A stretch of DNA of 64,000 bases from Abditibacterium sp. (GTDB lineage Bacteria > Armatimonadota > Abditibacteriia > Abditibacteriales > Abditibacteriaceae): assembly GCA_965246885.1 (NCBI GenBank), contig OZ251992.1:1312001-1376000 (forward strand), given 5' to 3'. Under the pieces are notes generated by a model, which made no database searches, was not told the origin of the DNA, and saw only the letters and a list, made by a program, of their open reading frames with translations. This document shows, in pieces, positions 1,165 to 9,910 of this stretch. A program made the position numbers and the translations under genes. Position 1 is the first letter of the stretch, and the number at the start of each line of letters is the position of its first letter.

Positions 1165-2604
1165 TCAAGGCACCGCCGTCAGCCACCCATGTTTCGCCTG
1201 CAACTTCGCGGCGACGGCGGGCGAAACCATGTGGATGAACGCCAGATAGCCGCGCGCGTAGGGGAGGGCGGGTTTGCCCATTTGCTCGGAAACCGCGCCC
1301 TCGCCGCGCGTTTCGATGGCGTGCAGGACGGCGCGGAAGCGGCGCAGGTCGCGGCGCGACAGGCGCGGCTCGCCGTCGCCGTTGACGACCAAACCCGTCA
1401 CGCTTTGCCGCGCGCCGCGCCGCAGGAGCGCGATTTTGTCGGGGTTGAGCGCGAACTGCTCGGCTTCCAACACGGTCAACACGCCGCGTTGCAAGGAGAT
1501 GGGCCGCGCGTCGGGCGCGGGCGACGAAAACACGAGGTCGTCGGCGTAGCGCGAATAGGTGAATCCGTAGTGCGCCGCCATGCCCTGAAGCCGCGCGTCC
1601 AAGCGGCGGCAGAGCAAATTCGTCAGCGCGGGCGAAGTCGGGGCGCCTTGCGGCACGAAGCGTTCGCCAAGAGCGACGTAGGATTTCTGGCCGTCGAAAG
1701 TGGCCGCAACGCGCGGCGATTCGGTGCAAATCAGCGCGAGCAGGGTGGCGATACCGCGATTGTAACCGAGCGAGCCGAACACCCCGGCAACGCGCGCGAA
1801 GGTGATGGACGGGAAGAAATCCTTCAAGTCCACGCGCAAGAGGGCGCTCGGCCCGCCCGATTCGGTGTGCGCGTGTCGGGCCGCGTTGTCGGCGATGTTG
1901 AGAGCGGGCAAGAACGCGGCGGCGGCAGCGTGAACCGGAACGGGGCGTAGCACGGCCTCCAGAATCTTGCTTTGCGCCGCTTTCAGATACGGGCGGGGCG
2001 CGGAAATGGCGCGACTGCCGCCGCTTCGTTTGGGAATGGAAAAGTGCGAGTAGTGATCGGTCGGCGCGGCTTCGCGGTGGTAGCACAACCACGCGAGTTG
2101 GCCGACGTTCATCTCCAGAAAGCCCGCCAAATCGCGCGGCTCGTTCCACACGGGCAGGCCAAAGCGCGCCAGTTTTTCGGCGTCGGACGGGATGGAAAAG
2201 TCGAGGCGGCGCGATACGCCGCGTCCCAAATGCGGTAACTGCTCGGAGCGCCACCGGGCGTCGTCGGCCAAGCGCAACTCGCGTTCGCGGGCGCGGCGTT
2301 CCTTTCGTTCGGCGCGCGCGGCTTTGACGCGCTCGATGCGGGCGCGGCGCACTTCGGCCAGCTTTGCTTCGATGTCTCCGGCGCTTGAAAGTTCGCGCTC
2401 CACGTCGCTCAGGCGGGCGCGCAAAGGGCGCGCATCCTCGGCAACGGCGCGCAGTTCGTCGTTGAGCGGCGCTAATTTGGCGCGTAGTTCCTCGGCAGTG
2501 GCGGGCGCGTCGCCGTTGGCGGGCGGCCAAAAACCAAGCCGTTCTATCTCGCGGCGCTCAAATTCGCGCTTCCCCAACTGCTTGATGTCGTCGCGCCAAC
2601 TCAT
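1165..2604 (-). CDS. Retron-type reverse transcriptase (479 aa) with N-terminal coiled-coil extension
   Basis: IPKRSGGSRAISAP, DNAARH (retron region X NAxxH), DLKDFFPSI, PQGAPTSP, YSRYADDL, RQSVTGLVVN (retron region Y VTG). ATG at 2604 overlaps the upstream stop (ATGA) and has an AAGGAG RBS. Confidence 0.92.
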   Translation of the reverse strand: MSWRDDIKQLGKREFERREIERLGFWPPANGDAPATAEELRAKLAPLNDELRAVAEDARPLRARLSDVERELSSAGDIEAKLAEVRRARIERVKAARAERKERRARERELRLADDARWRSEQLPHLGRGVSRRLDFSIPSDAEKLARFGLPVWNEPRDLAGFLEMNVGQLAWLCYHREAAPTDHYSHFSIPKRSGGSRAISAPRPYLKAAQSKILEAVLRPVPVHAAAAAFLPALNIADNAARHAHTESGGPSALLRVDLKDFFPSITFARVAGVFGSLGYNRGIATLLALICTESPRVAATFDGQKSYVALGERFVPQGAPTSPALTNLLCRRLDARLQGMAAHYGFTYSRYADDLVFSSPAPDARPISLQRGVLTVLEAEQFALNPDKIALLRRGARQSVTGLVVNGDGEPRLSRRDLRRFRAVLHAIETRGEGAVSEQMGKPALPYARGYLAFIHMVSPAVAAKLQAKHGWLTAVP

Positions 2605-4313
2605 CTCGCGCTCTCCTTTTCGGCTTGCGCCAAGCCCGCGAGCAAATGCGCGCACGGGCCGCCGCGTCCCTTGTCGCGGCGAAACTCGCCGCAGGTGCAT
2701 TGCCAGAACCGCACGCGCCCGTCCAAGTCGCGCGCCCACAAAGGCCTGAAAACTCCGCCTTCAGTTGCAACGACCGCTTGGAAAAAGGCGACATCGGGCG
2801 CGTTGTATCTCTGAAAAAATTCGTCCTCATCAATCTCGTCTGTGGGAATCGCTATCAAGATGACCAGTTGTTTCTCGACCCAGCGCCGCGCCGATTTCGT
2901 TTTGGCATCCTCCTCAGATTCGGGCGCCGGGAACGCGAGCAGTTGCCGCCAGCGATAGGCGCCGATCTTGGCATCGAAGAGCGCGCGGCCTTCCCGACAC
3001 AACTTTTGCAGAGCCGCGCCCGCTTCCTCGCGTGGCCAACTCGCAAACGCTGCCAACGCCTCGACTGAAAGCACGCGCTTCCACTCCAACTCCTTCGCGG
3101 CGATTTGCAGGCTCGAATCAGAGATTTCCCGCCCCGCCGCAAGCGCATCAAAGCGGGCTGAGGCGCTCCAATCGTTCTGCGTCCAGCCGGACAGCCCCAA
3201 CTCGAAGCGGTGCCCCTCCAACTCCAAAGCCCAAAACGACGGCAAACCGTCGCCCAGTAGCCGCACTTCGACCGATTGCGCGTGCGGCAACAACTCCGAC
3301 AACACGGACAAGCGCCGCCGTCCCCAAATACGGACGGTGCGCGCCGCCCCTTCGTAGGAGATGTTCGGCTCGCGCACGGTTTCTCCCCAAGGTTCGATTT
3401 CAATCGTGGGCAACTCGCCCGGCGCGAGCGAAAACTTGAGCGAACGCGGCCCGCTCGTTTCGCGGCGCGCGGCCAGAAGTCGCAATATCTCGGCAACGGT
3501 CGTCGCGCTCAAGCGCAAAGTCGTCGTCGCCAACGCCGAGGCGCTCCCCACCTGCAAAAACCCGCGCACCCACGACGGCGGCAGGTCTATCTTCTTTTCG
3601 ACCCGCGTGCCCGCAGAGGTTTGCACGCTCACGCCGCCGCTTCCCACGCTCAGAAACGCACCCCGATAGTCGCGCACCCGCGCCAATTCGTCGGCCAGAC
3701 TCTGCGAAAAGTCCACGTTCGTCGTGCCGTACGCTACCTCGCCGAGCGCGTCGAGGTTCTCGGACGGCACGCGCACGCACGCATAGCTGGATTCGTCGAG
3801 CGAGAACACCTCGAACAGCACCGCGTCGGGATGCACCGACACGACCGGATCAAGCACGATCCACATCTGCCGGTCGTGCGTGTAGAGGAACTGCCAGAAT
3901 TTGTATTGCGCGTCGCGGTAGCTTTTCGCGTCACCGCGCGATAGTTTTTGCACCTCTTGCAGTAGCTCCTTCGCGCGCCCATCGAGCGTCGCCAAGCGCG
4001 TTTGGAGTTCTTCCGATTCGCTCTGCAACTGCGGCAAGCGCCCGCGCAGCGCCGCCAAGTAGGGCGCCAAGTCCTTGAGGTATTCGCCCTGCACCCACGC
4101 CTGATAGTCCGTGTGGTCGCGCCCGACGAAGCGCGCTTCTTGCGACACGACGCGGTGCAACGCGCCCATCACGCGGCCATAGGCGCGCGAGTGCAACACC
4201 AACGCTTCCAACCGCACGCCGGGCCGGGCGGCTTCTGTGGGCAAAGAGAAGTCAAGGCCGTCGCCGCGCGGCTGGGCCGACGAGGGAAAGGGGTAAGATT
4301 GGGTAATTTGCAT
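2601..4313 (-). CDS. SWIM zinc-finger domain protein (570 aa), retron-associated
   Basis: C-terminal WQCTCGEF...GPCAHLLA (CxC...CxH); also LDPVVSVHPD...FEVFSLDESSY, TTNVDFS and LPPSWVRGFLQV blocks; translationally coupled to the RT. Confidence 0.85.
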   Translation of the reverse strand: MQITQSYPFPSSAQPRGDGLDFSLPTEAARPGVRLEALVLHSRAYGRVMGALHRVVSQEARFVGRDHTDYQAWVQGEYLKDLAPYLAALRGRLPQLQSESEELQTRLATLDGRAKELLQEVQKLSRGDAKSYRDAQYKFWQFLYTHDRQMWIVLDPVVSVHPDAVLFEVFSLDESSYACVRVPSENLDALGEVAYGTTNVDFSQSLADELARVRDYRGAFLSVGSGGVSVQTSAGTRVEKKIDLPPSWVRGFLQVGSASALATTTLRLSATTVAEILRLLAARRETSGPRSLKFSLAPGELPTIEIEPWGETVREPNISYEGAARTVRIWGRRRLSVLSELLPHAQSVEVRLLGDGLPSFWALELEGHRFELGLSGWTQNDWSASARFDALAAGREISDSSLQIAAKELEWKRVLSVEALAAFASWPREEAGAALQKLCREGRALFDAKIGAYRWRQLLAFPAPESEEDAKTKSARRWVEKQLVILIAIPTDEIDEDEFFQRYNAPDVAFFQAVVATEGGVFRPLWARDLDGRVRFWQCTCGEFRRDKGRGGPCAHLLAGLAQAEKESAR

Positions 4314-4340
4314 GATGGTCTTCCTGCCTTTGTGCTGGCG

Positions 4341-4410
4341 GGCGGGCAACCACATGGGTTGCCCCTACGGAGAGGGTGAGTGGTAGGGGCAACCGTATGG
4401 GTTGCCCGCC
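4341..4410. repeat. GTAG-type REP doublet in an operon intergenic spacer
   Basis: GGCGGGCAACCACATGGGTTGCCCCTAC (4341-4368) and the inverted GTAGGGGCAACCGTATGGGTTGCCCGCC (4383-4410); each is a hairpin with a GTAG tetranucleotide. Confidence 0.75.
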
Positions 4411-4424
4411 GTGCTGCGCTCTGG

Positions 4425-7400
4425 TTAAGGCGAAACCCGCAACCCCTCCACTTCCACGCCGCTCAACCGCAACCGCACGAGTTGCGCTAAGGCCCATTCG
4501 CGGTCGCGCCCCGCGCCGGTGCGCGCGGCGTCGAGCAGGGTGGCGACATCGGTCGTCTGCGCGTGACGGAGGCGGAGTTGCACGAGGTTTTTGGCGCGGC
4601 GCGAACTCCCGCGCGTGTTCAAGATGGAAGTGTCGAAGGCGGCTATGGGCGCCGTTGCGGGCGCGGTTTGGAGTTGCGCGGCCACAAAAGCGCGCACGCG
4701 GGGCGCGTCGTGTTGCGCGAGTTGTTCCAAGAGCGCGGGCGTCCAACGCGCGGGAAAACGCGCGAGCAAGTCGAGTCCGGCGTGTTGCGTTTCGCTTTTG
4801 GGCGAGTCGCACAGCGCCAACACGCGGGCGGGCCATTCGTCATTCTCGGCTTCAAAGAATGGGCGCGCGAGCGCGAGGCCTTCGGGCAAGCCGCTTTCCA
4901 TCAATCGCAGCCCCGCGCGCAGATTAAGCGGCGTTTGGCGCAAGCGGGCCAAAGCTGGGGCGCGGAACTCCTCATTCAAGGAAGTCGCGGCGGCGAATAG
5001 GAGCGGTTCGTCGCCCGCCATCGTGGGCAAGTGCGCGGCAAACCACGCTTCCAAGAGGGAGTCCAAACCGCCCTTGTTCGCTTCCATGAGCGGCAACACG
5101 GCATGCGCGGGCAATTCCGCGAACGCATTGTTTGCCCGCGCGCGTCCGATGCGCTCCAACCACGCGGCGCCTTGGGGGGCGTCGAGTTCGCTTAGAAACG
5201 CCCACAACGCGCCCGTGAGGGGCAAGGCCGTGAGGTTGTCGGCGAAGGTTTGGCTCGGCAGAGCCGCTAATTTGCGCCACGTCGCAACGGAAAGGTTGGG
5301 GGCCAGCGCCGCGAAAAAGTGTGCGCGGCCAAGCGGAGGGAGAAGTGCGGCGAAGTCGAAATCTTCGGCGCTCGCGGCGGCTTCGATGCGCGCGGCGAAC
5401 GCTTCGGCAAAGCGCGCTTCGCCGCCCAACTGCCAGAACTGCGCGCGCAACGCGGGCTGATTCCACAACCACTCCGCGACGGCGGGCGCCATCTTCATCG
5501 CCATCAAAGCGGGCGCGAGAGGTTCGAGCAACTCCTGCGCGGCGACGGTTCCCCACTCCGCGAGCGTCAATCCGTCGGGCCGCGCGCCAGTCAGCGCCGC
5601 GCAAAAGACGGCGCGGAGCGTCGGCAGGAGTTGCTTCGCCAGCGCGAATTGCGCGGCCCGCGCGCGCGCTTCGACAAGCGGCGTCGCCCACGCCACAACT
5701 TCCGGCTCGTCGGCTTCGGGCGCGTCGAGGGCGCGCAGAACCCATCCCTCGCTCGGCTCAATTTGCCTAAAGCGCGCGAACAAGAGGAGCAGTTCGCCGC
5801 GCACCGGAAGGAAGCGCGCCTCTTGCAACTGGCGCGCGAGCGGTTTCCAATCGGCGTTCGGGTTGGCCGACAAAGCCGCGCGCACGACGGCGAGCGCGAG
5901 TTGCGGCGCCGCGCTTGTGGCGAAGCGGAGCGCGTGTTCGGGTGTGGCGGCGGGAGTCTCGCCGCGCCGCGTCAGCCACTCCCACGCCCACGCCAGAATC
6001 GGGATGGGGAGGGCGTCGTCGCTCCACAACGCGCGCACCAAGTCGGGCCGCGCGGCGAAGACGGTGTCTTGGAGGCCCAAGCGAAAGGCGAGGGTGCGCG
6101 CGATATCGCCGCTTTGCGCGCGTTGCAGCGACCCCAAAACGAGCGGAGCGAGCAGGGCGCGGCGCTCCGGCGCGAGTTCGGTTTGTTCCGCTAAGAAGCG
6201 CAGCAACCGCTCGGCGCGGCGGGTGAGGTAAGCGACCGTCGCGCGCGTTGGCCCGCCGTTCGGCAGGCGTTTCGGGTCGCCGCGCCGCGCCGTCTCGGAG
6301 TCGAGGCGCCCAATCAGCACACCCAACAAGAGCGCCTCGCGCTCGGTGGCGAGGGGCGCGTCGGGCGGCAAGTCGCTCTCGGTTTTCTTCCAACGCGCGC
6401 GGGTTTGGAGTGGCCAAACCCGCGTTTCCAACGCTTTCCACGCGCGCTTGAAGTCGGGCCAAGTGGCGCCATCGAGCGGCGCACCGCGCAACTCGCGGCG
6501 CAACTTCTCGAAGTCGGCGCCCTCCGCGCCAAGCGCCATGTTCTGCGGCGGCAGGACGGCGTGCTTCGTCGGGTCAAATGGCAAACGCAGACTCAGGCGA
6601 AGCGATTTCGGGCGCGTCGAGGCGGGCTTAGGCAGCGACGAAAGTAGCAGCGTCGGCACCGTCTCGAAGTGATTGTCCGCGAAGAAGCGCGCCTTCGCGT
6701 CGTCGGACGCGAACGTCAGCACATACGCGCGGCCCACACCCGGATTCGCCGCCATATAAGGAAGCAACCGCGTCGGACTCCCCGTCTTGGTGCCCAAGTC
6801 GTTGATGAACACAACGGCGTCCTCTTGGGCAGTGAGCGGAGTATCTTGAGTGCGGAGCCGCGTTCCGAAGGGCGTGCGCGAGGTGGCGCGGACGGTGACT
6901 TGAGCGCGGTCAAACGAGTTGAACCAGTCATTCTGGATGGCGATGCCACTCCATTCGAGCGGGCGCCCCGCGCTTCGCAGCACGCGCGGTAGGTAGTCGC
7001 CCATCTCGCCCGTCAGTTGCGCGAAGCGGATTTTGGCTTCCCAGATGTTGGGCGCGGACGCGATACGTTCACGGAGCAGGGGCGCCAACTCGCGTTCGAG
7101 ACGCACGACTGCGGCGGCCAATCTGTCTTGAGTCGCGCCAGAGAAAATCAGCGCTTCACCTGTTTCGCTGACTTCCAACTTGTCCGGCGCAAACGCAAGC
7201 TCGACGCCGAGAGAAGTTCGCATTCCGCCCAGATTGCGGCTAAGCAGAAGCCCAGTAGAAACGGGGAAACCGACGTCATCCACCACTGCGAAGGATGAGC
7301 CGCCGCGTGTGACCTTCCATCTGTCGCCCTCGAATAGAACCTCGCCGCGTTGAGAGCCGCCCAAAGCCCCACCCCGAACGCGCGGCGGGACGCGGAAGAA

Positions 7401-8183
7401 GTCGAAAACGCGCGCGGCTTCGTGCCCGACGTGATTCGCTCTGAGTAACGAAGCGCCGATAGGGACTTCCACTTCCACGCCATCCCCCTGATTCGTCGGC
7501 ACTTCGCCGTCTTTGGTGACGGTGCCGATGCCCGCCATGTCGAGGGCGCATCGGAAGGTTTTGGCCCTCCCGCCTTGGAAGGTCGAGACGCGGAACTCGT
7601 CAGCGTAAGCGTAGGCGGCGCGCGCGCCGAAGTCGGAAGTGACGGCGGGCGAGAGGGCGTAGCGCGCGAGAACTTCGGCTTCGGTTGGGACGGCGCCATA
7701 CGAGCGGACGCGGAAGCGGGGGTCTTGGGCGGTCGGAAGCCAAACATCGAAGGGCGTGTCGCCGATGCCCGCCGCGTCGTGGAAAGCGCGCGCTTCGAGG
7801 GCGATTTCGCGGATGAGCGCGGCGATGGGGTTCGAGTAGCGCAGCGCGACGGGCAAAGCCGCGCGGTTGACGCCGATGACGGCGGGCGCACTTTGAATCG
7901 GCGCGGGCGAAGTGTTGGCGGGTGTCGCGGCGCGGGGCGCGTAGCGAAATGGGGGCGTCGCGGCCTTGACCGAAGCGTCGGGCGCGCGGTCGTAACCGGG
8001 CATCTGCCCACCCGAAAACATCGTTTGCACCACGCCGTTGACAAGGGGGTGCGGCACTTCGACGCCCGCTCCCAAGCGGCGCCGCACCTCCAGCGTTATC
8101 TCGTAGGCTGTGAACGAGGCGCCCGCCACGACTTGATCCAAAACGGTCTGGCGCGCTTCTAATTCGATTTGGGGGTTAGTCAT
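4425..8183 (-). CDS. Large (1252 aa) multidomain protein: small N-terminal domain, degenerate RIIA-like GHKL/HSP90-type region, C-terminal alpha-helical (HEAT/ARM-like) region
   Basis: RYSNPIAALIREI...AAGIGDTPFDVWLPTAQDPRFRVRSYG...AYAYADEFRVSTFQGG...DGVEVEVPI resembles phage RIIA N-termini. The C-terminal half is Leu/Ala/Trp-rich and helical (LALCDSP...LEQLAQHDAPRVRAFVA). Confidence 0.75.
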   Translation of the reverse strand: MTNPQIELEARQTVLDQVVAGASFTAYEITLEVRRRLGAGVEVPHPLVNGVVQTMFSGGQMPGYDRAPDASVKAATPPFRYAPRAATPANTSPAPIQSAPAVIGVNRAALPVALRYSNPIAALIREIALEARAFHDAAGIGDTPFDVWLPTAQDPRFRVRSYGAVPTEAEVLARYALSPAVTSDFGARAAYAYADEFRVSTFQGGRAKTFRCALDMAGIGTVTKDGEVPTNQGDGVEVEVPIGASLLRANHVGHEAARVFDFFRVPPRVRGGALGGSQRGEVLFEGDRWKVTRGGSSFAVVDDVGFPVSTGLLLSRNLGGMRTSLGVELAFAPDKLEVSETGEALIFSGATQDRLAAAVVRLERELAPLLRERIASAPNIWEAKIRFAQLTGEMGDYLPRVLRSAGRPLEWSGIAIQNDWFNSFDRAQVTVRATSRTPFGTRLRTQDTPLTAQEDAVVFINDLGTKTGSPTRLLPYMAANPGVGRAYVLTFASDDAKARFFADNHFETVPTLLLSSLPKPASTRPKSLRLSLRLPFDPTKHAVLPPQNMALGAEGADFEKLRRELRGAPLDGATWPDFKRAWKALETRVWPLQTRARWKKTESDLPPDAPLATEREALLLGVLIGRLDSETARRGDPKRLPNGGPTRATVAYLTRRAERLLRFLAEQTELAPERRALLAPLVLGSLQRAQSGDIARTLAFRLGLQDTVFAARPDLVRALWSDDALPIPILAWAWEWLTRRGETPAATPEHALRFATSAAPQLALAVVRAALSANPNADWKPLARQLQEARFLPVRGELLLLFARFRQIEPSEGWVLRALDAPEADEPEVVAWATPLVEARARAAQFALAKQLLPTLRAVFCAALTGARPDGLTLAEWGTVAAQELLEPLAPALMAMKMAPAVAEWLWNQPALRAQFWQLGGEARFAEAFAARIEAAASAEDFDFAALLPPLGRAHFFAALAPNLSVATWRKLAALPSQTFADNLTALPLTGALWAFLSELDAPQGAAWLERIGRARANNAFAELPAHAVLPLMEANKGGLDSLLEAWFAAHLPTMAGDEPLLFAAATSLNEEFRAPALARLRQTPLNLRAGLRLMESGLPEGLALARPFFEAENDEWPARVLALCDSPKSETQHAGLDLLARFPARWTPALLEQLAQHDAPRVRAFVAAQLQTAPATAPIAAFDTSILNTRGSSRRAKNLVQLRLRHAQTTDVATLLDAARTGAGRDREWALAQLVRLRLSGVEVEGLRVSP

Positions 8184-8267
8184 AATCTTTATCGCGCAGA
8201 GGCGCAAAGGCGCGGATGTAAAAAACCTTGGCGTCTTCGCGCCTTTGAGAGAGGCTTCTCACGCGCC

Positions 8268-9563
8268 TCACTCAAACTCCAGCAAATACACGGGGTTAGC
8301 TTGGGCGGTGTCGAAGATGATGACTTCGTCGTTGATGAGCCAGCCGGACTTTCCGGCGCGCGCCCAGTAGGAGTCGTAACCGGCGGGCGGGTTCTTGCTG
8401 GTCGTGGTCTTTGGCTCGAAATCGCGGCCAACGGCGACCTCGTTGAGGAACATATAAATTTTGCGCGTGCCCTTGCCGCCCCAAAAGCCGTTGGCGTATT
8501 GCAGCGATTTGGTCGAGGCGGGCGCGAAGTAGAGGCCGTTGCCAAAGGCTTTTCCGGCGATGTGGGCGGTCGAGGGCGGCGTCATCATAAAGCCGGACTT
8601 GAGGATGGACAAGACATTGGCGCTGGAAGTGCCGTGCCACAAGCGGTGGATGTTGCCTTTGGCGCGTCCGCGCTCCTCGAAGTTGCGCTTCATGCCCGCG
8701 ATTTCGACGGTGTAGACGTTGGCGAGATTTAGGTGCTTGATGGTGACGTGTTCGGTTTTGGCGGAGGTCTCGAAGTGGTGCTTGATGGCGTTAAACTCCG
8801 CGTCGTCGCGGAGTAGTTCAAGCGCGGTATCGAAGAGTTGCGGGACAGGTTCCGGCTCCTTGCCTTCTTCTTTGGGCGCAGTAAGCGCGGTCGTGAGACT
8901 CGCTTCAAGCGAGTCGAGGATGCCCAATTGTTTCTGGATTTCGGCATCGTCGGGGAAAAGCGACTTGGGATCGGGGCGGGTGCGGCCAAAGTCGCGCGGC
9001 ACGATGGTGAGGAACTGATTGACGAAATCAAGGTAGTCCTTGTCGTCCCAGATGCCCGCGTCCACTTTGTCCTTGATCTTCGAGAGCAGCAAACGCCCGT
9101 CCAAGATGCCGCCCTGCGTGATTAGCCCCGACGCGGTGGAGAACAACCCCGTCGCCGCGTTGTATTTGATGGCCGAGTTCGCGGTGATGTTGTGGATGTT
9201 TTGCGCGCACAGGAACGAAATGAGCGCCTTGACTTCGAGCGATTGGGTGCGGATTTGTTCGAGGGCGATCTGCTCCAATCCGGCGTTTTTGGCGCCCGCT
9301 CCAGTGGGAATGTTGGCGTCGAGAACGGGTTGCGGCTTGTAGCCCTTGGCGGTCTTTTCGCGCAGCTTGGAGTTGAAAAGCCGCTCGCCGCCCGCTTGGG
9401 TGGTGTCGGACTGCGTTTGCAGTTCGCCGCCGGAGTTCTCGATGTAGCGACCGTAGCGGATGCGGACGGTGTCGTCCTCGTGGAGGTCGAGATAGTAGAA
9501 CTTGTTGTTGTTGGTGCCTACCGACACGAAAATGAGCCGTGCGCTTTGGGTAACTTTCGACAT
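8268..9563 (-). CDS. Bacterial poly(ADP-ribose) polymerase-like protein (WGR + PARP regulatory + PARP catalytic), 431 aa
   Basis: WGR-like NNNKFY...IRYGR...KLREKTAKGY; regulatory FLTIVPRDFG...QLGILDSL; catalytic LWHGTS, GKAFGNGLYFA, KSLQYA, INDEVIIF (H-Y-E triad). GGAG RBS present. Confidence 0.9.
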   Translation of the reverse strand: MSKVTQSARLIFVSVGTNNNKFYYLDLHEDDTVRIRYGRYIENSGGELQTQSDTTQAGGERLFNSKLREKTAKGYKPQPVLDANIPTGAGAKNAGLEQIALEQIRTQSLEVKALISFLCAQNIHNITANSAIKYNAATGLFSTASGLITQGGILDGRLLLSKIKDKVDAGIWDDKDYLDFVNQFLTIVPRDFGRTRPDPKSLFPDDAEIQKQLGILDSLEASLTTALTAPKEEGKEPEPVPQLFDTALELLRDDAEFNAIKHHFETSAKTEHVTIKHLNLANVYTVEIAGMKRNFEERGRAKGNIHRLWHGTSSANVLSILKSGFMMTPPSTAHIAGKAFGNGLYFAPASTKSLQYANGFWGGKGTRKIYMFLNEVAVGRDFEPKTTTSKNPPAGYDSYWARAGKSGWLINDEVIIFDTAQANPVYLLEFE

Positions 9564-9910
9564 GGTGATTCTCCCGACGCGGCAAAGGCGTTGGATAAAG
9601 GGTTCTCGCGGAAGAGAATTGGGTTGTCAAAACAAAGAAACAAAGTGGGGCGGCACGCAGCTTTACCAACCGAGACGGGCGCCAGTCGCTGTAACCCGGT
9701 TTGCGGGGCGCGCGCCATATGTCGCACCGGTTGTGTCGTAGCCCCGTAGGGAAGCTACCGTGCGACACAACCGGTGCGACATATGGCGCGCGCCCCGCAA
9801 ACCGGGTGAAAACACACCGGCGACCCGTGCTGCAAGCGCAGCGAAAAGGGAAGTCATTGCTCGTCCGGCGAAACACCGGACACATTGCCAACGCCCCGCT
9901 CCACCATGTT
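9560..9910 (-). ncRNA. Candidate retron ncRNA (msr-msd) at the head of the PARP-RT operon
   Basis: Closing inverted repeats 9587-9594/9888-9895 (GGCGTTGG/CCAACGCC), extendable with 9560-9567/9902-9909. Small 5' hairpin GTCCGGTG-TTT-CGCCGGAC (9863-9881). 45-bp perfect hairpin 9694-9738/9763-9807. No credible ORF. Confidence 0.65.
9694..9807. repeat. Perfect 45-bp inverted repeat with 24-nt loop
   Basis: ACCCGGTTTGCGGGGCGCGCGCCATATGTCGCACCGGTTGTGTCG at 9694-9738 and its exact reverse complement at 9763-9807. Confidence 0.97.

Follow-up and report, generated by a model that had tools for sequence, protein, structure and literature searches.

A type XIII retron operon from Abditibacterium with an RIIA-like, apparently inactivated head on its scaffold protein and a gene for a PARP-type protein

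Type XIII retrons, whose reverse transcriptases (RTs) belong to RT clade 10 (Mx162, Mx65, Sa163, Ne144), combine a SWIM/DEDE protein (cluster 114_1) with a HEAT/ARM partner possessing an N-terminal WGR-like domain (cluster 216_1), as set out in passages of Mestre (2020, PMC7736814). They include the first retrons ever found (Mx162 and Mx65), and both their function and their trigger are still unknown. The phage protein RIIA is described in parts of Iyer et al. (2021, PMC7824862) as consisting of a GHKL ATPase at the N-terminus and a C-terminus that varies. The rII genes count among the classics of genetics, and what RIIA does biochemically has yet to be established. Here we report on a stretch of 64,000 nucleotides from Abditibacterium sp. 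(assembly GCA_965246885.1, contig OZ251992.1, positions 1,312,001 to 1,376,000 of the forward strand), hereafter referred to as the window, that carries a derived type XIII retron operon with the order candidate msr/msd, WGR-PARP, scaffold, SWIM, RT. Residues 112-530 of its scaffold protein are a true homologue of the N-terminal GHKL and middle module of phage RIIA, and this RIIA-headed, PARP-bearing retron subfamily thereby links the type XIII and the RIIA problem.

The operon shares with type XIII retrons an RT and a SWIM protein recognized by the RT_XIII and SWIM_XIII profiles, and a homologous solenoid; a candidate long-hairpin non-coding RNA (ncRNA) lies at its 5' end. It differs from them in the head of its scaffold protein, which consists of a winged helix and a seemingly dead RIIA module instead of a WGR-like domain or an LVIVD propeller, and in the absence of a WGR domain from this protein; the WGR domain resides on a separate, full PARP-type protein encoded between the ncRNA and the scaffold gene. 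Compared with RIIA of phage T4 and its orthologues, the head is homologous in sequence, profile and predicted fold from the GHKL to the middle region, as far as about residue 550, and shares their invariant non-catalytic residues, but it has lost the ATP-binding Asn, the Asp and the glycine lid. Moreover, the C-terminal 250 or so residues of RIIA are replaced by a 690-residue HEAT/ARM solenoid, a winged helix stands in front, and the fused protein is chromosomal, encoded in a four-gene retron operon. What is new here is a type XIII retron whose scaffold head appears to be a captured, inactivated phage RIIA module, plus a PARP-type enzyme. Full-text literature searches (articles without their supplements) retrieved no account of an RIIA-retron fusion or of a PARP-armed retron; 'rIIA' does not occur in the text of Mestre (2020, PMC7736814), and the covered portions of a 2026 survey (PMC13712802) mention remodelling only for SWIM_2/DUF6849 in a Bacillota subgroup.

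The RIIA-like head of the scaffold protein

The open reading frame (ORF) of the scaffold gene extends over positions 4425-8207 (1260 codons) and opens with a TTG at 8207; the ATG at 8183 is the likely start, since all homologues begin there, at the residue equivalent to the first of MTNPQ. Residues are numbered below from the TTG at 8207, unless they are marked as model numbering, which refers to an AlphaFold2 (AF2) model of residues 9-560. While scans against Pfam and NCBIfam returned no family for this protein, the following parts can be distinguished:

4425..8183, minus strand: gene for the scaffold protein with RIIA-type head and HEAT/ARM solenoid, 1252 amino acids (ORF list and translation)
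7929..8183, minus strand: N-terminal winged-helix-like domain, ORF residues 9-93 (AF2: three helices and a beta-hairpin)
7398..7874, minus strand: degenerate GHKL (Bergerat-fold) domain of the RIIA type, ORF residues about 112-270 (profiles, tblastn, structure, motif counts)
7779..7811, minus strand: N-box remnant REIALEARAFH, Mg-binding Asn replaced by Glu and Asp by Ala (alignments, counts)
7689..7715, minus strand: G1 box remnant FRVRSYGAV, adenine-contacting Asp replaced by Ser (alignments, counts)
7593..7640, minus strand: remnant of the G2 box and ATP lid, with a deletion and the conserved glycines gone (alignments, counts)
6618..7397, minus strand: transducer-like middle region of RIIA plus a third subdomain (alpha/beta) that holds VVFINDLG, ORF residues 271-530
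4428..6488, minus strand: HEAT/ARM alpha-solenoid scaffold, ORF residues 574-1260 (hhalign, AF2, Foldseek, PADLOC)

A first-pass annotation, made by a model from the letters and a list of ORFs, had assigned an RIIA-type GHKL domain apparently devoid of its ATPase residues, fused to a helical scaffold, to positions 6625-7845 (minus strand), which correspond to residues 121-528. The strings it quoted are all present in the translation: YSNPIAALIREIALEA (from residue 124), FRVRSYGAV (165-173), FGARAAYAYADEF (within 190-205), GVEVEVP (243-249) and VVFINDLG (465-472).

The assignment to RIIA is upheld by profiles, by sequence searches and by structure comparisons. The profile similarity to RIIA/GHKL proteins, whose absence the first-pass annotation had named as the finding that would speak against it, is pronounced: among the PHROG profiles, the head matched phrog_612 ('RIIA lysis inhibitor') with an E-value of 1.1e-21 (residues 194-419 against positions 118-345 of 725) and phrog_30832 with 5.8e-11 (residues 95-395 against positions 8-332 of 735), and weaker RIIA families as well. 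A tblastn search of residues 100-530 against 50,697 phage records matched 683 of them (best E 3e-17), many of which are labelled rIIA, with T4-like phages at about 1e-11. An exhaustive phmmer search of 1.84 billion representatives returned 5904 proteins at E<=1e-3, 27 of them at E<=1e-30; this list contains a handful of proteins of about 1290 amino acids and fragments, followed by proteins of about 700 amino acids matched over their residues 40-460. All seven of the latter that were scanned are members of phrog_612 (E 1e-75 to 1e-116). A match to phrog_609 ('RIIB lysis inhibitor', 1055 positions) might suggest an RIIB-like head, but the label can mislead, because this family is an RIIA-RIIB fusion, RIIA-like at about positions 30-340 and true RIIB at 817-1049; the head aligns to the RIIA part (profile positions 41-204), and we rejected this assignment.

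The AF2 model of the head, built from an alignment of 61 sequences (alignment A1), has a predicted local distance difference test (pLDDT) value of 87.8, exceeding 90 over most of the module, and a predicted template modelling score of 0.71. Foldseek matched it to predicted structures of phage RIIA in BFVD with E-values between 7e-32 and 1e-24 and to HSP90/TRAP1 with 1.6e-11; the only solved structures matched are GHKL ATPases with a second (transducer/middle) domain. VIA-align gave Z values of 15.8 for TopoVI-B, 15.6 for TRAP1 and 14.9 for GyrB, and these alignments extend to model residue 418. In a Foldseek-independent scan of 48,161 chains, all 29 chains with a Z value of at least 8 are GHKL ATPases, among them GRP94 (15.2), MutL and SMCHD1 (13.2 each), MORC2 (13.1) and sacsin (9.7). 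RIIA, HSP90, MORC and sacsin, the families that the first-pass annotation had proposed for comparison, were thus all matched by the head model. Searched by sequence, the Protein Data Bank (PDB) gave chance-level matches to the head (E 0.46) and no solved RIIA structure; T4 rIIA itself matched HSP90 N-domains only weakly there (E 0.06). With the GHKL plus transducer ATPases (HSP90/GRP94/TRAP1, TopoVI-B, GyrB/ParE, MutL, MORC, SMCHD1, sacsin SR1) the head shares the Bergerat fold followed by a second domain; it differs from them in that identity is as low as 10-16% and that it lacks their nucleotide-binding motifs and is probably non-enzymatic.

As a member of the RIIA family, the head thus has the sequence and profile similarity and the GHKL fold followed by the middle region, and it lacks the nucleotide motifs, the C-terminal region and the setting in a phage next to rIIB. 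The C-terminal region of RIIA (from about position 420 to 725 of the profile) is absent from the scaffold protein; the PHROG matches end at position 345.

To assess the nucleotide site, 21 fused proteins and fragments were aligned with 145 stand-alone RIIA proteins (142 representatives plus T4, RpAliso and SUSP2 rIIA), and residues were counted in the motif columns of T4. The Mg-binding Asn of the N-box is found in none of the 21 fused sequences (Glu in 15, Ala in six) as opposed to 142 of the 145 stand-alone ones, and the N-box Asp in six as opposed to 142; the three stand-alone rows without these two residues are alignment gaps. The adenine-binding Asp of G1 is likewise missing from every fused sequence (Ser in 15, Cys in six) and present in 143 stand-alone proteins. 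Two lid glycines that are each present in 144/145 stand-alone proteins, at T4 positions 120 and 117, are retained in 0/21 and 3/21 fused sequences, respectively. One G1 glycine is invariant in the fused set (21/21), and the lysine following the lid is kept in 13 sequences. Compared with T4 rIIA, the lid of all fused members carries a common deletion of six residues, which amounts to about 15 columns relative to the closest stand-alone relatives; since this deletion is common to all, the inactivation should be old. The loss of the catalytic Asn, of the Asp of the DxGxG motif and of most of the ATP lid, as suggested in the first-pass annotation, is therefore evident throughout the family. The same annotation had held a domain that is constant across the family with an intact ATPase to be evidence against it; constancy of the domain is confined to a small derived subfamily, in every member of which it is degenerate.

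Positions outside the site are kept. R125, P150, G163, F197, P267, W289 and D462 (model numbering) are invariant across the 61 fused and stand-alone sequences of alignment A1, and the Asn-Asp pair of VVFINDLG (N461/D462, model numbering) is conserved in both forms. Since residues of the nucleotide site are lost while positions outside it are invariant, the head has the sequence pattern of a pseudo-enzyme rather than that of random decay, and we predict that it has no ATPase activity.

The two parts that flank the RIIA module could be modelled as well. No other part of the scaffold protein is as conserved as the winged-helix-like domain (85 residues; mean pairwise identity 0.75). This domain resembles a Fur-family winged helix at a borderline level (Z 7.9, 67 aligned residues, rmsd 2.6), matches no family in Pfam or PHROG, and, as an 84-residue query to the ESM Atlas, returned just matches of 0.90-0.91 to unnamed viral/archaeal clusters; it may bind the multicopy single-stranded DNA (msDNA) of the retron. 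The solenoid was predicted with a pLDDT of 92.2 and is helical throughout, in line with the fusion of the RIIA domain to a helical scaffold put forward in the first-pass annotation; its Foldseek matches are karyopherins, PP2A-A and HEAT subunits of condensin (E about 1e-4), and it matched the PADLOC profile HEAT-ARM_XIII at just 9.2e-7.

Exchange of scaffold heads and distribution of the fused form

Of 401 genomes sampled from the phylum, 65 have a match to the SWIM_XIII profile. Fourteen of these loci were fetched; 12 are scaffold-SWIM-RT triplets, which we refer to as canonical, and two are SWIM paralogues without an RT. The 12 canonical scaffold proteins (925-1184 amino acids) all match HEAT-ARM_XIII, and 11 of them match the scaffold part of WGR_XIII (PADLOC). 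When 16 sequences of the fused family and these 12 proteins were compared as profiles by hhalign, the alignment had a probability of 100 and an E-value of 3.3e-49 and was restricted to residues 651-1260. Since canonical scaffolds align with the solenoid alone, sequence comparison indicates that a conserved solenoid has been extended at its N-terminus by the winged helix and the RIIA module. In the consensus lines, the window protein repeats, at residues about 575-605, the short element with which the canonical proteins open.

Eight of the 12 canonical scaffolds possess LVIVD beta-propeller repeats at residues of about 120-410, between this N-terminal element and the solenoid; as judged by the alignments, the propeller is inserted in a loop and has no counterpart in the fused family. 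The head of type XIII scaffolds is, to go by these comparisons, a variable module. The first-pass annotation had proposed looking for swaps of the N-terminal region among homologous scaffolds, and such a swap is what we found: the solenoid is shared, eight of the 12 canonical scaffolds have the LVIVD propeller and none is accompanied by a PARP gene. Several genomes carry both a canonical and a variant system. The gene for the WGR-PARP protein is present in all six variant loci (the window and five that were fetched); in none of the 12 canonical loci was a PARP match found, and their upstream neighbours are unrelated genes. The WGR-PARP protein is therefore a candidate for an effector specific to the RIIA variant.

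The fused family is small. A word-based search yielded 15 full-length members, the exhaustive search added two representatives and fragments, and a search for longer proteins added one; word-based homologue searches with the scaffold part and for longer head fusions returned the same small family only. Among 59 pattern matches from a locus search of genome contigs with the whole protein, none was confirmed, and a locus search of viral contigs with the closest stand-alone RIIA (P0030) returned no locus. Within the 401 genomes, the head query found the fused form in seven of the 13 genomes of the window's genus (the window included) and in no other genus. Its sole other match is a 17.8-kb contig from another family of the phylum (genome G371, contig C99; L021, 4565-7940), which carries a live rIIA (737 amino acids, phrog_612 E 4.9e-75), an adjacent rIIB (382 amino acids) and an endolysin, and is probably a phage of this phylum. 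The window's genome (92.7% complete) contains one RIIA-like region and one RT_XIII; rIIB was not found in it with either phrog_11221 or an RIIB protein from the same phylum, a weak negative as the control matched nowhere.

An unrooted RIIA tree of 87 rows unites the 14 fused modules in a single clade (SH-aLRT 100, with a stem of 0.51). A tree of SWIM proteins, rooted on the paralogues without RT, places the variant clade among canonical systems of the same bacterial family (SH-aLRT 100, stem 0.61). In the simplest history, the ancestor of the genus had a canonical type XIII retron, which on a single occasion captured the 5' portion of a phage rIIA gene as well as a PARP gene. Joint acquisition of PARP and RIIA from one phage was considered and rejected: in Klebsiella phage 05F01, the one phage locus looked at, the PARP gene is not adjacent to rIIA.

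Two observations concern the relatives of the system. The two SWIM_XIII-like paralogues without an RT (about 33% identical; L063, 6065-10548, and L064, 9054-13619) adjoin proteins of 964-971 amino acids for which no Pfam or PADLOC family was matched; these pairs may be a non-retron relative of the system. Upstream of two canonical operons lie genes for a Ro60/TROVE-vWA protein (L058, 3526-5190) and a PNKP-type kinase-phosphatase-ligase (L054, 15415-18156), both associated with RNA repair, possibly by coincidence.

Rates of evolution and possible role of the head

The scaffold protein is the least conserved product of the operon. In five related genomes, identity to the window is 72-83% for PARP, 67-76% for SWIM, 64-75% for the RT and 37-52% for the scaffold protein, in which mean pairwise identity amounts to 0.51 in the GHKL part, 0.32-0.44 in the middle region and 0.45-0.57 in the solenoid. 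Non-synonymous rates (dN) and their ratios to synonymous ones (dN/dS) were taken from the least diverged pair (G072-G125); since saturation affects dS in most other pairs, we rely on relative dN alone, and dN/dS does not serve as a test of positive selection. In this pair, dN and dN/dS were 0.06 and 0.08 for PARP, 0.11 and 0.17 for SWIM, 0.13 and 0.21 for the RT, 0.39 and 0.42 for the GHKL part and 0.64 and 0.45 for the middle region, which is the fastest-evolving part. The head thus changes three to ten times faster than its neighbours while purifying selection persists, and its frame is open in all full-length members of two subclades that are about 35% identical to each other. This pattern of rates fits an interface facing a changing partner.

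We tentatively favour, at somewhat less than even confidence, a head that is a captured, inactivated phage module and serves the retron scaffold as a protein-binding sensor or bait. Speaking for this reading are the homology and fold, the selective loss of the ATP-binding residues under persisting constraint, the fast evolution, the exchangeable position of the head, the narrow distribution, and the live rIIA-rIIB pair on the G371 contig, by which phages carrying such pairs are seen to occur with this phylum. The module would have passed from a phage to the ancestor of a single bacterial genus and would now be a pseudo-enzyme. During infection, the usual partner of RIIA would engage the head, either phage RIIA itself through GHKL-type dimerization or RIIB; an incoming RIIA or RIIB could do so because dimers are the working form of GHKL modules and rIIB is the partner of rIIA, to which it is even fused in some phages. 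This engagement would alter the complex of scaffold, RT and msDNA and free effectors, namely the WGR-PARP protein (through NAD+ consumption or ADP-ribosylation) and/or the SWIM/DEDE protein, and the infection would be aborted once these are released. A more specific version, in which the dead RIIA is a virus-derived bait and co-assembly with phage RIIA/RIIB frees an msDNA-guarded WGR-PARP protein that kills or arrests the cell, strikes us as rather doubtful. There is a precedent for immunity that senses rII proteins, in that RIIB triggers a gasdermin/CARD system, according to parts of PMC10312443 and of a review (PMC12409349); the same parts of the review describe the sensing of phage Ocr by PARIS. 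The logic proposed here would be like that of these immune systems that sense phage counter-defence, with a non-catalytic recognition domain fused to an immune machine. Integrated decoys of plant NLR proteins offer a further analogy, with the difference that the domain fused here would be derived from a virus rather than from a host target, and that recognition is inferred.

Several points weigh against this sensor or bait reading. It presupposes binding partners for RIIA and for the head, both of them hypothetical, as well as a hypothetical cognate phage. An arms race is not the only explanation for a head that evolves fast with dN/dS below 1, since relaxed constraint would account for it equally well, and the perfect co-occurrence of head and PARP gene (6/6 versus 0/12 loci) fits a role as an effector adaptor equally well. 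The head is N-terminal and the propeller a loop insertion further in, so that the two are not strict positional equivalents. The genes flanking the operon are housekeeping-like, with no defence island, and, according to passages of Mestre (2020, PMC7736814), type XIII retrons tend to vertical inheritance and possibly have a role other than defence. As to the capture of a phage domain posited in the first-pass annotation, the single clade, the single genus and the nesting of the SWIM proteins among canonical ones speak for it, while the direction of transfer is not proven because the RIIA tree is unrooted.

The main alternative is an adaptor or assembly module that mimics nothing: the head would dimerize the scaffold or dock the WGR-PARP protein, the RT or the msDNA, and sensing would take place elsewhere, for instance, as in other retrons, through modification or degradation of msDNA. 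Pseudo-enzymes often act as scaffolds, the best structural matches of the head (HSP90, MutL, GyrB, TopoVI-B, MORC) use GHKL plus transducer as a dimerization or clamp device, head and PARP gene were gained together (6/6 variant as opposed to 0/12 canonical loci), and the highly conserved winged helix (0.75 identity) beside the head fits a constant internal ligand such as msDNA. Slow evolution would be the expectation for a purely internal interface, but in this operon PARP, RT and SWIM are the slow parts and the head is the fastest. An adaptor, which we regard as possible but on the whole unlikely, also leaves unexplained the recruitment of a phage counter-defence protein, of all proteins. Prediction of a complex between the head (residues 9-560) and the WGR-PARP protein gave a score of 0.00 in two runs without controls, which counts neither way.

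The fast rates, and in particular the highest dN and the lowest identity within the protein together with the loss of all catalytic motifs, would also be in keeping with an RIIA part that is a functionless relic of a fusion in relaxed drift, with only the winged helix and the solenoid being of importance. Such a remnant is hard to reconcile with an uninterrupted reading frame over some 420 residues in every full-length member of either subclade, a dN/dS below 0.5, the retention of family-invariant non-catalytic residues in a confidently predicted fold, and the common lid deletion that makes the inactivation old; we consider it very unlikely. Slightly less probable still is a nucleotide-regulated switch, a ligand sensor in which non-canonical residues, such as the Glu in place of Asn, would let the pocket bind ATP or a different nucleotide. 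Some pseudo-GHKL proteins do still bind nucleotide, the fold is kept, and so are the G1 glycine (21/21) and, in 13 of 21 sequences, the lysine after the lid; however, Asn, adenine-binding Asp and lid glycines are lost, the lid is shortened, and the replacements differ between the two subclades (Glu versus Ala; Ser versus Cys), which argues against a new conserved nucleotide site. We find it most improbable that the module is an old bacterial lineage from which phage RIIAs descend. The tree is unrooted and the fused clade joins it near its midpoint, but the fused form occurs in one genus only among the 401 genomes, its family numbers about 20 proteins in the databases searched versus 5904 matches overall, the operon is nested within canonical type XIII systems that do not have the module, and every fused member is degenerate, from which an active enzyme is unlikely to have descended.

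Whatever its partner, the head marks an exchangeable, probably ligand-recognizing part of type XIII systems and provides a natural bait for finding the binding partners of RIIA. With the sensor or bait reading come a trigger (rII proteins) and an effector (PARP) that can both be tested; if this reading is true, the capture of viral proteins by hosts for immunity would extend to retrons. Should the bait version hold, it would give retrons their first integrated bait of viral origin and their first PARP-armed member, and it would open a direct route to the molecular partners of the rII proteins.

The other components of the operon

The claim of the first-pass annotation that the scaffold protein is a retron partner is confirmed by its neighbours downstream, an RT and a SWIM protein that match their PADLOC type XIII profiles with E-values of 1.1e-139 and 1.9e-150, respectively. 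The order candidate ncRNA, PARP, scaffold, SWIM, RT is kept in all five related genomes that were fetched. In addition to the scaffold gene, the operon comprises:

1165..2739, minus strand: retron reverse transcriptase (PADLOC RT_XIII; NAARH, RYADD and VTG motifs)
2601..4355, minus strand: SWIM zinc-finger protein of type XIII retrons (PADLOC SWIM_XIII; Pfam SWIM, E 2.7e-4)
8268..9563, minus strand: protein of 431 amino acids with WGR, PARP regulatory helical and PARP catalytic domains (Pfam PARP, E 7.4e-25; WGR, E 2.3e-8)
9644..9900, minus strand: candidate retron ncRNA (msr-msd) with a1 candidate at 9892-9900, msd hairpin at 9694-9807 and a2 candidate at 9644-9652

The RT probably starts at the ATG at 2604, overlapping the stop of the SWIM gene; it matched retron families of NCBIfam at 6.6e-59, below the family cut-offs. 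The SWIM protein, which probably starts at 4313, carries the motif CxCx12CxH at residue 553.

Upstream of the PARP gene lies a hairpin with perfectly complementary arms of 45 nucleotides each (9694-9738 and 9763-9807). A perfect hairpin with arms of 31-47 base pairs is found at the same site in all six variant loci, with a sequence that differs between loci; in an alignment of the six, conservation is seen in both flanks, of which the left one is msr-like, and the stem is variable, with covariation in the hairpin; candidate a1/a2 repeats accompany it in all six loci. A long perfect hairpin is likewise present upstream of the scaffold gene in 11 of the 12 canonical loci, the twelfth offering too little upstream sequence. 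From these alignments, hairpin and flanks can be read as a candidate msr/msd gene. No retron RNA family of Rfam matched the ncRNA region, and a hit to the plant microRNA precursor MIR3454 at 9682-9821 (plus strand; 59.5 bits versus a gathering score of 142) was dismissed as an artefact of the msd hairpin. In a search of sequencing runs, none was listed for RNA, and two DNA runs of one study had matching contigs.

The WGR-PARP protein matched Pfam PARP_reg at 2.1e-5, just under the cut-off, and its WGR domain matched PADLOC WGR_XIII at 2.9e-4 (profile positions 2-104). In the PDB, it matched PARP3 (E 9.5e-22) and aligned with PARP2 over residues 15-381. It has the order of WGR, helical regulatory and catalytic domains in common with the DNA-end-activated eukaryotic PARP1-3 and differs from them in being bacterial, 431 amino acids long and encoded in a retron operon; msDNA may be its activating ligand. 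H310, Y345 and E413, which we take to be the catalytic triad (presumably so for the Glu), are invariant in all six orthologues. Homologues of this protein were found in 16 phage records (best 35% identity, E 1e-68).

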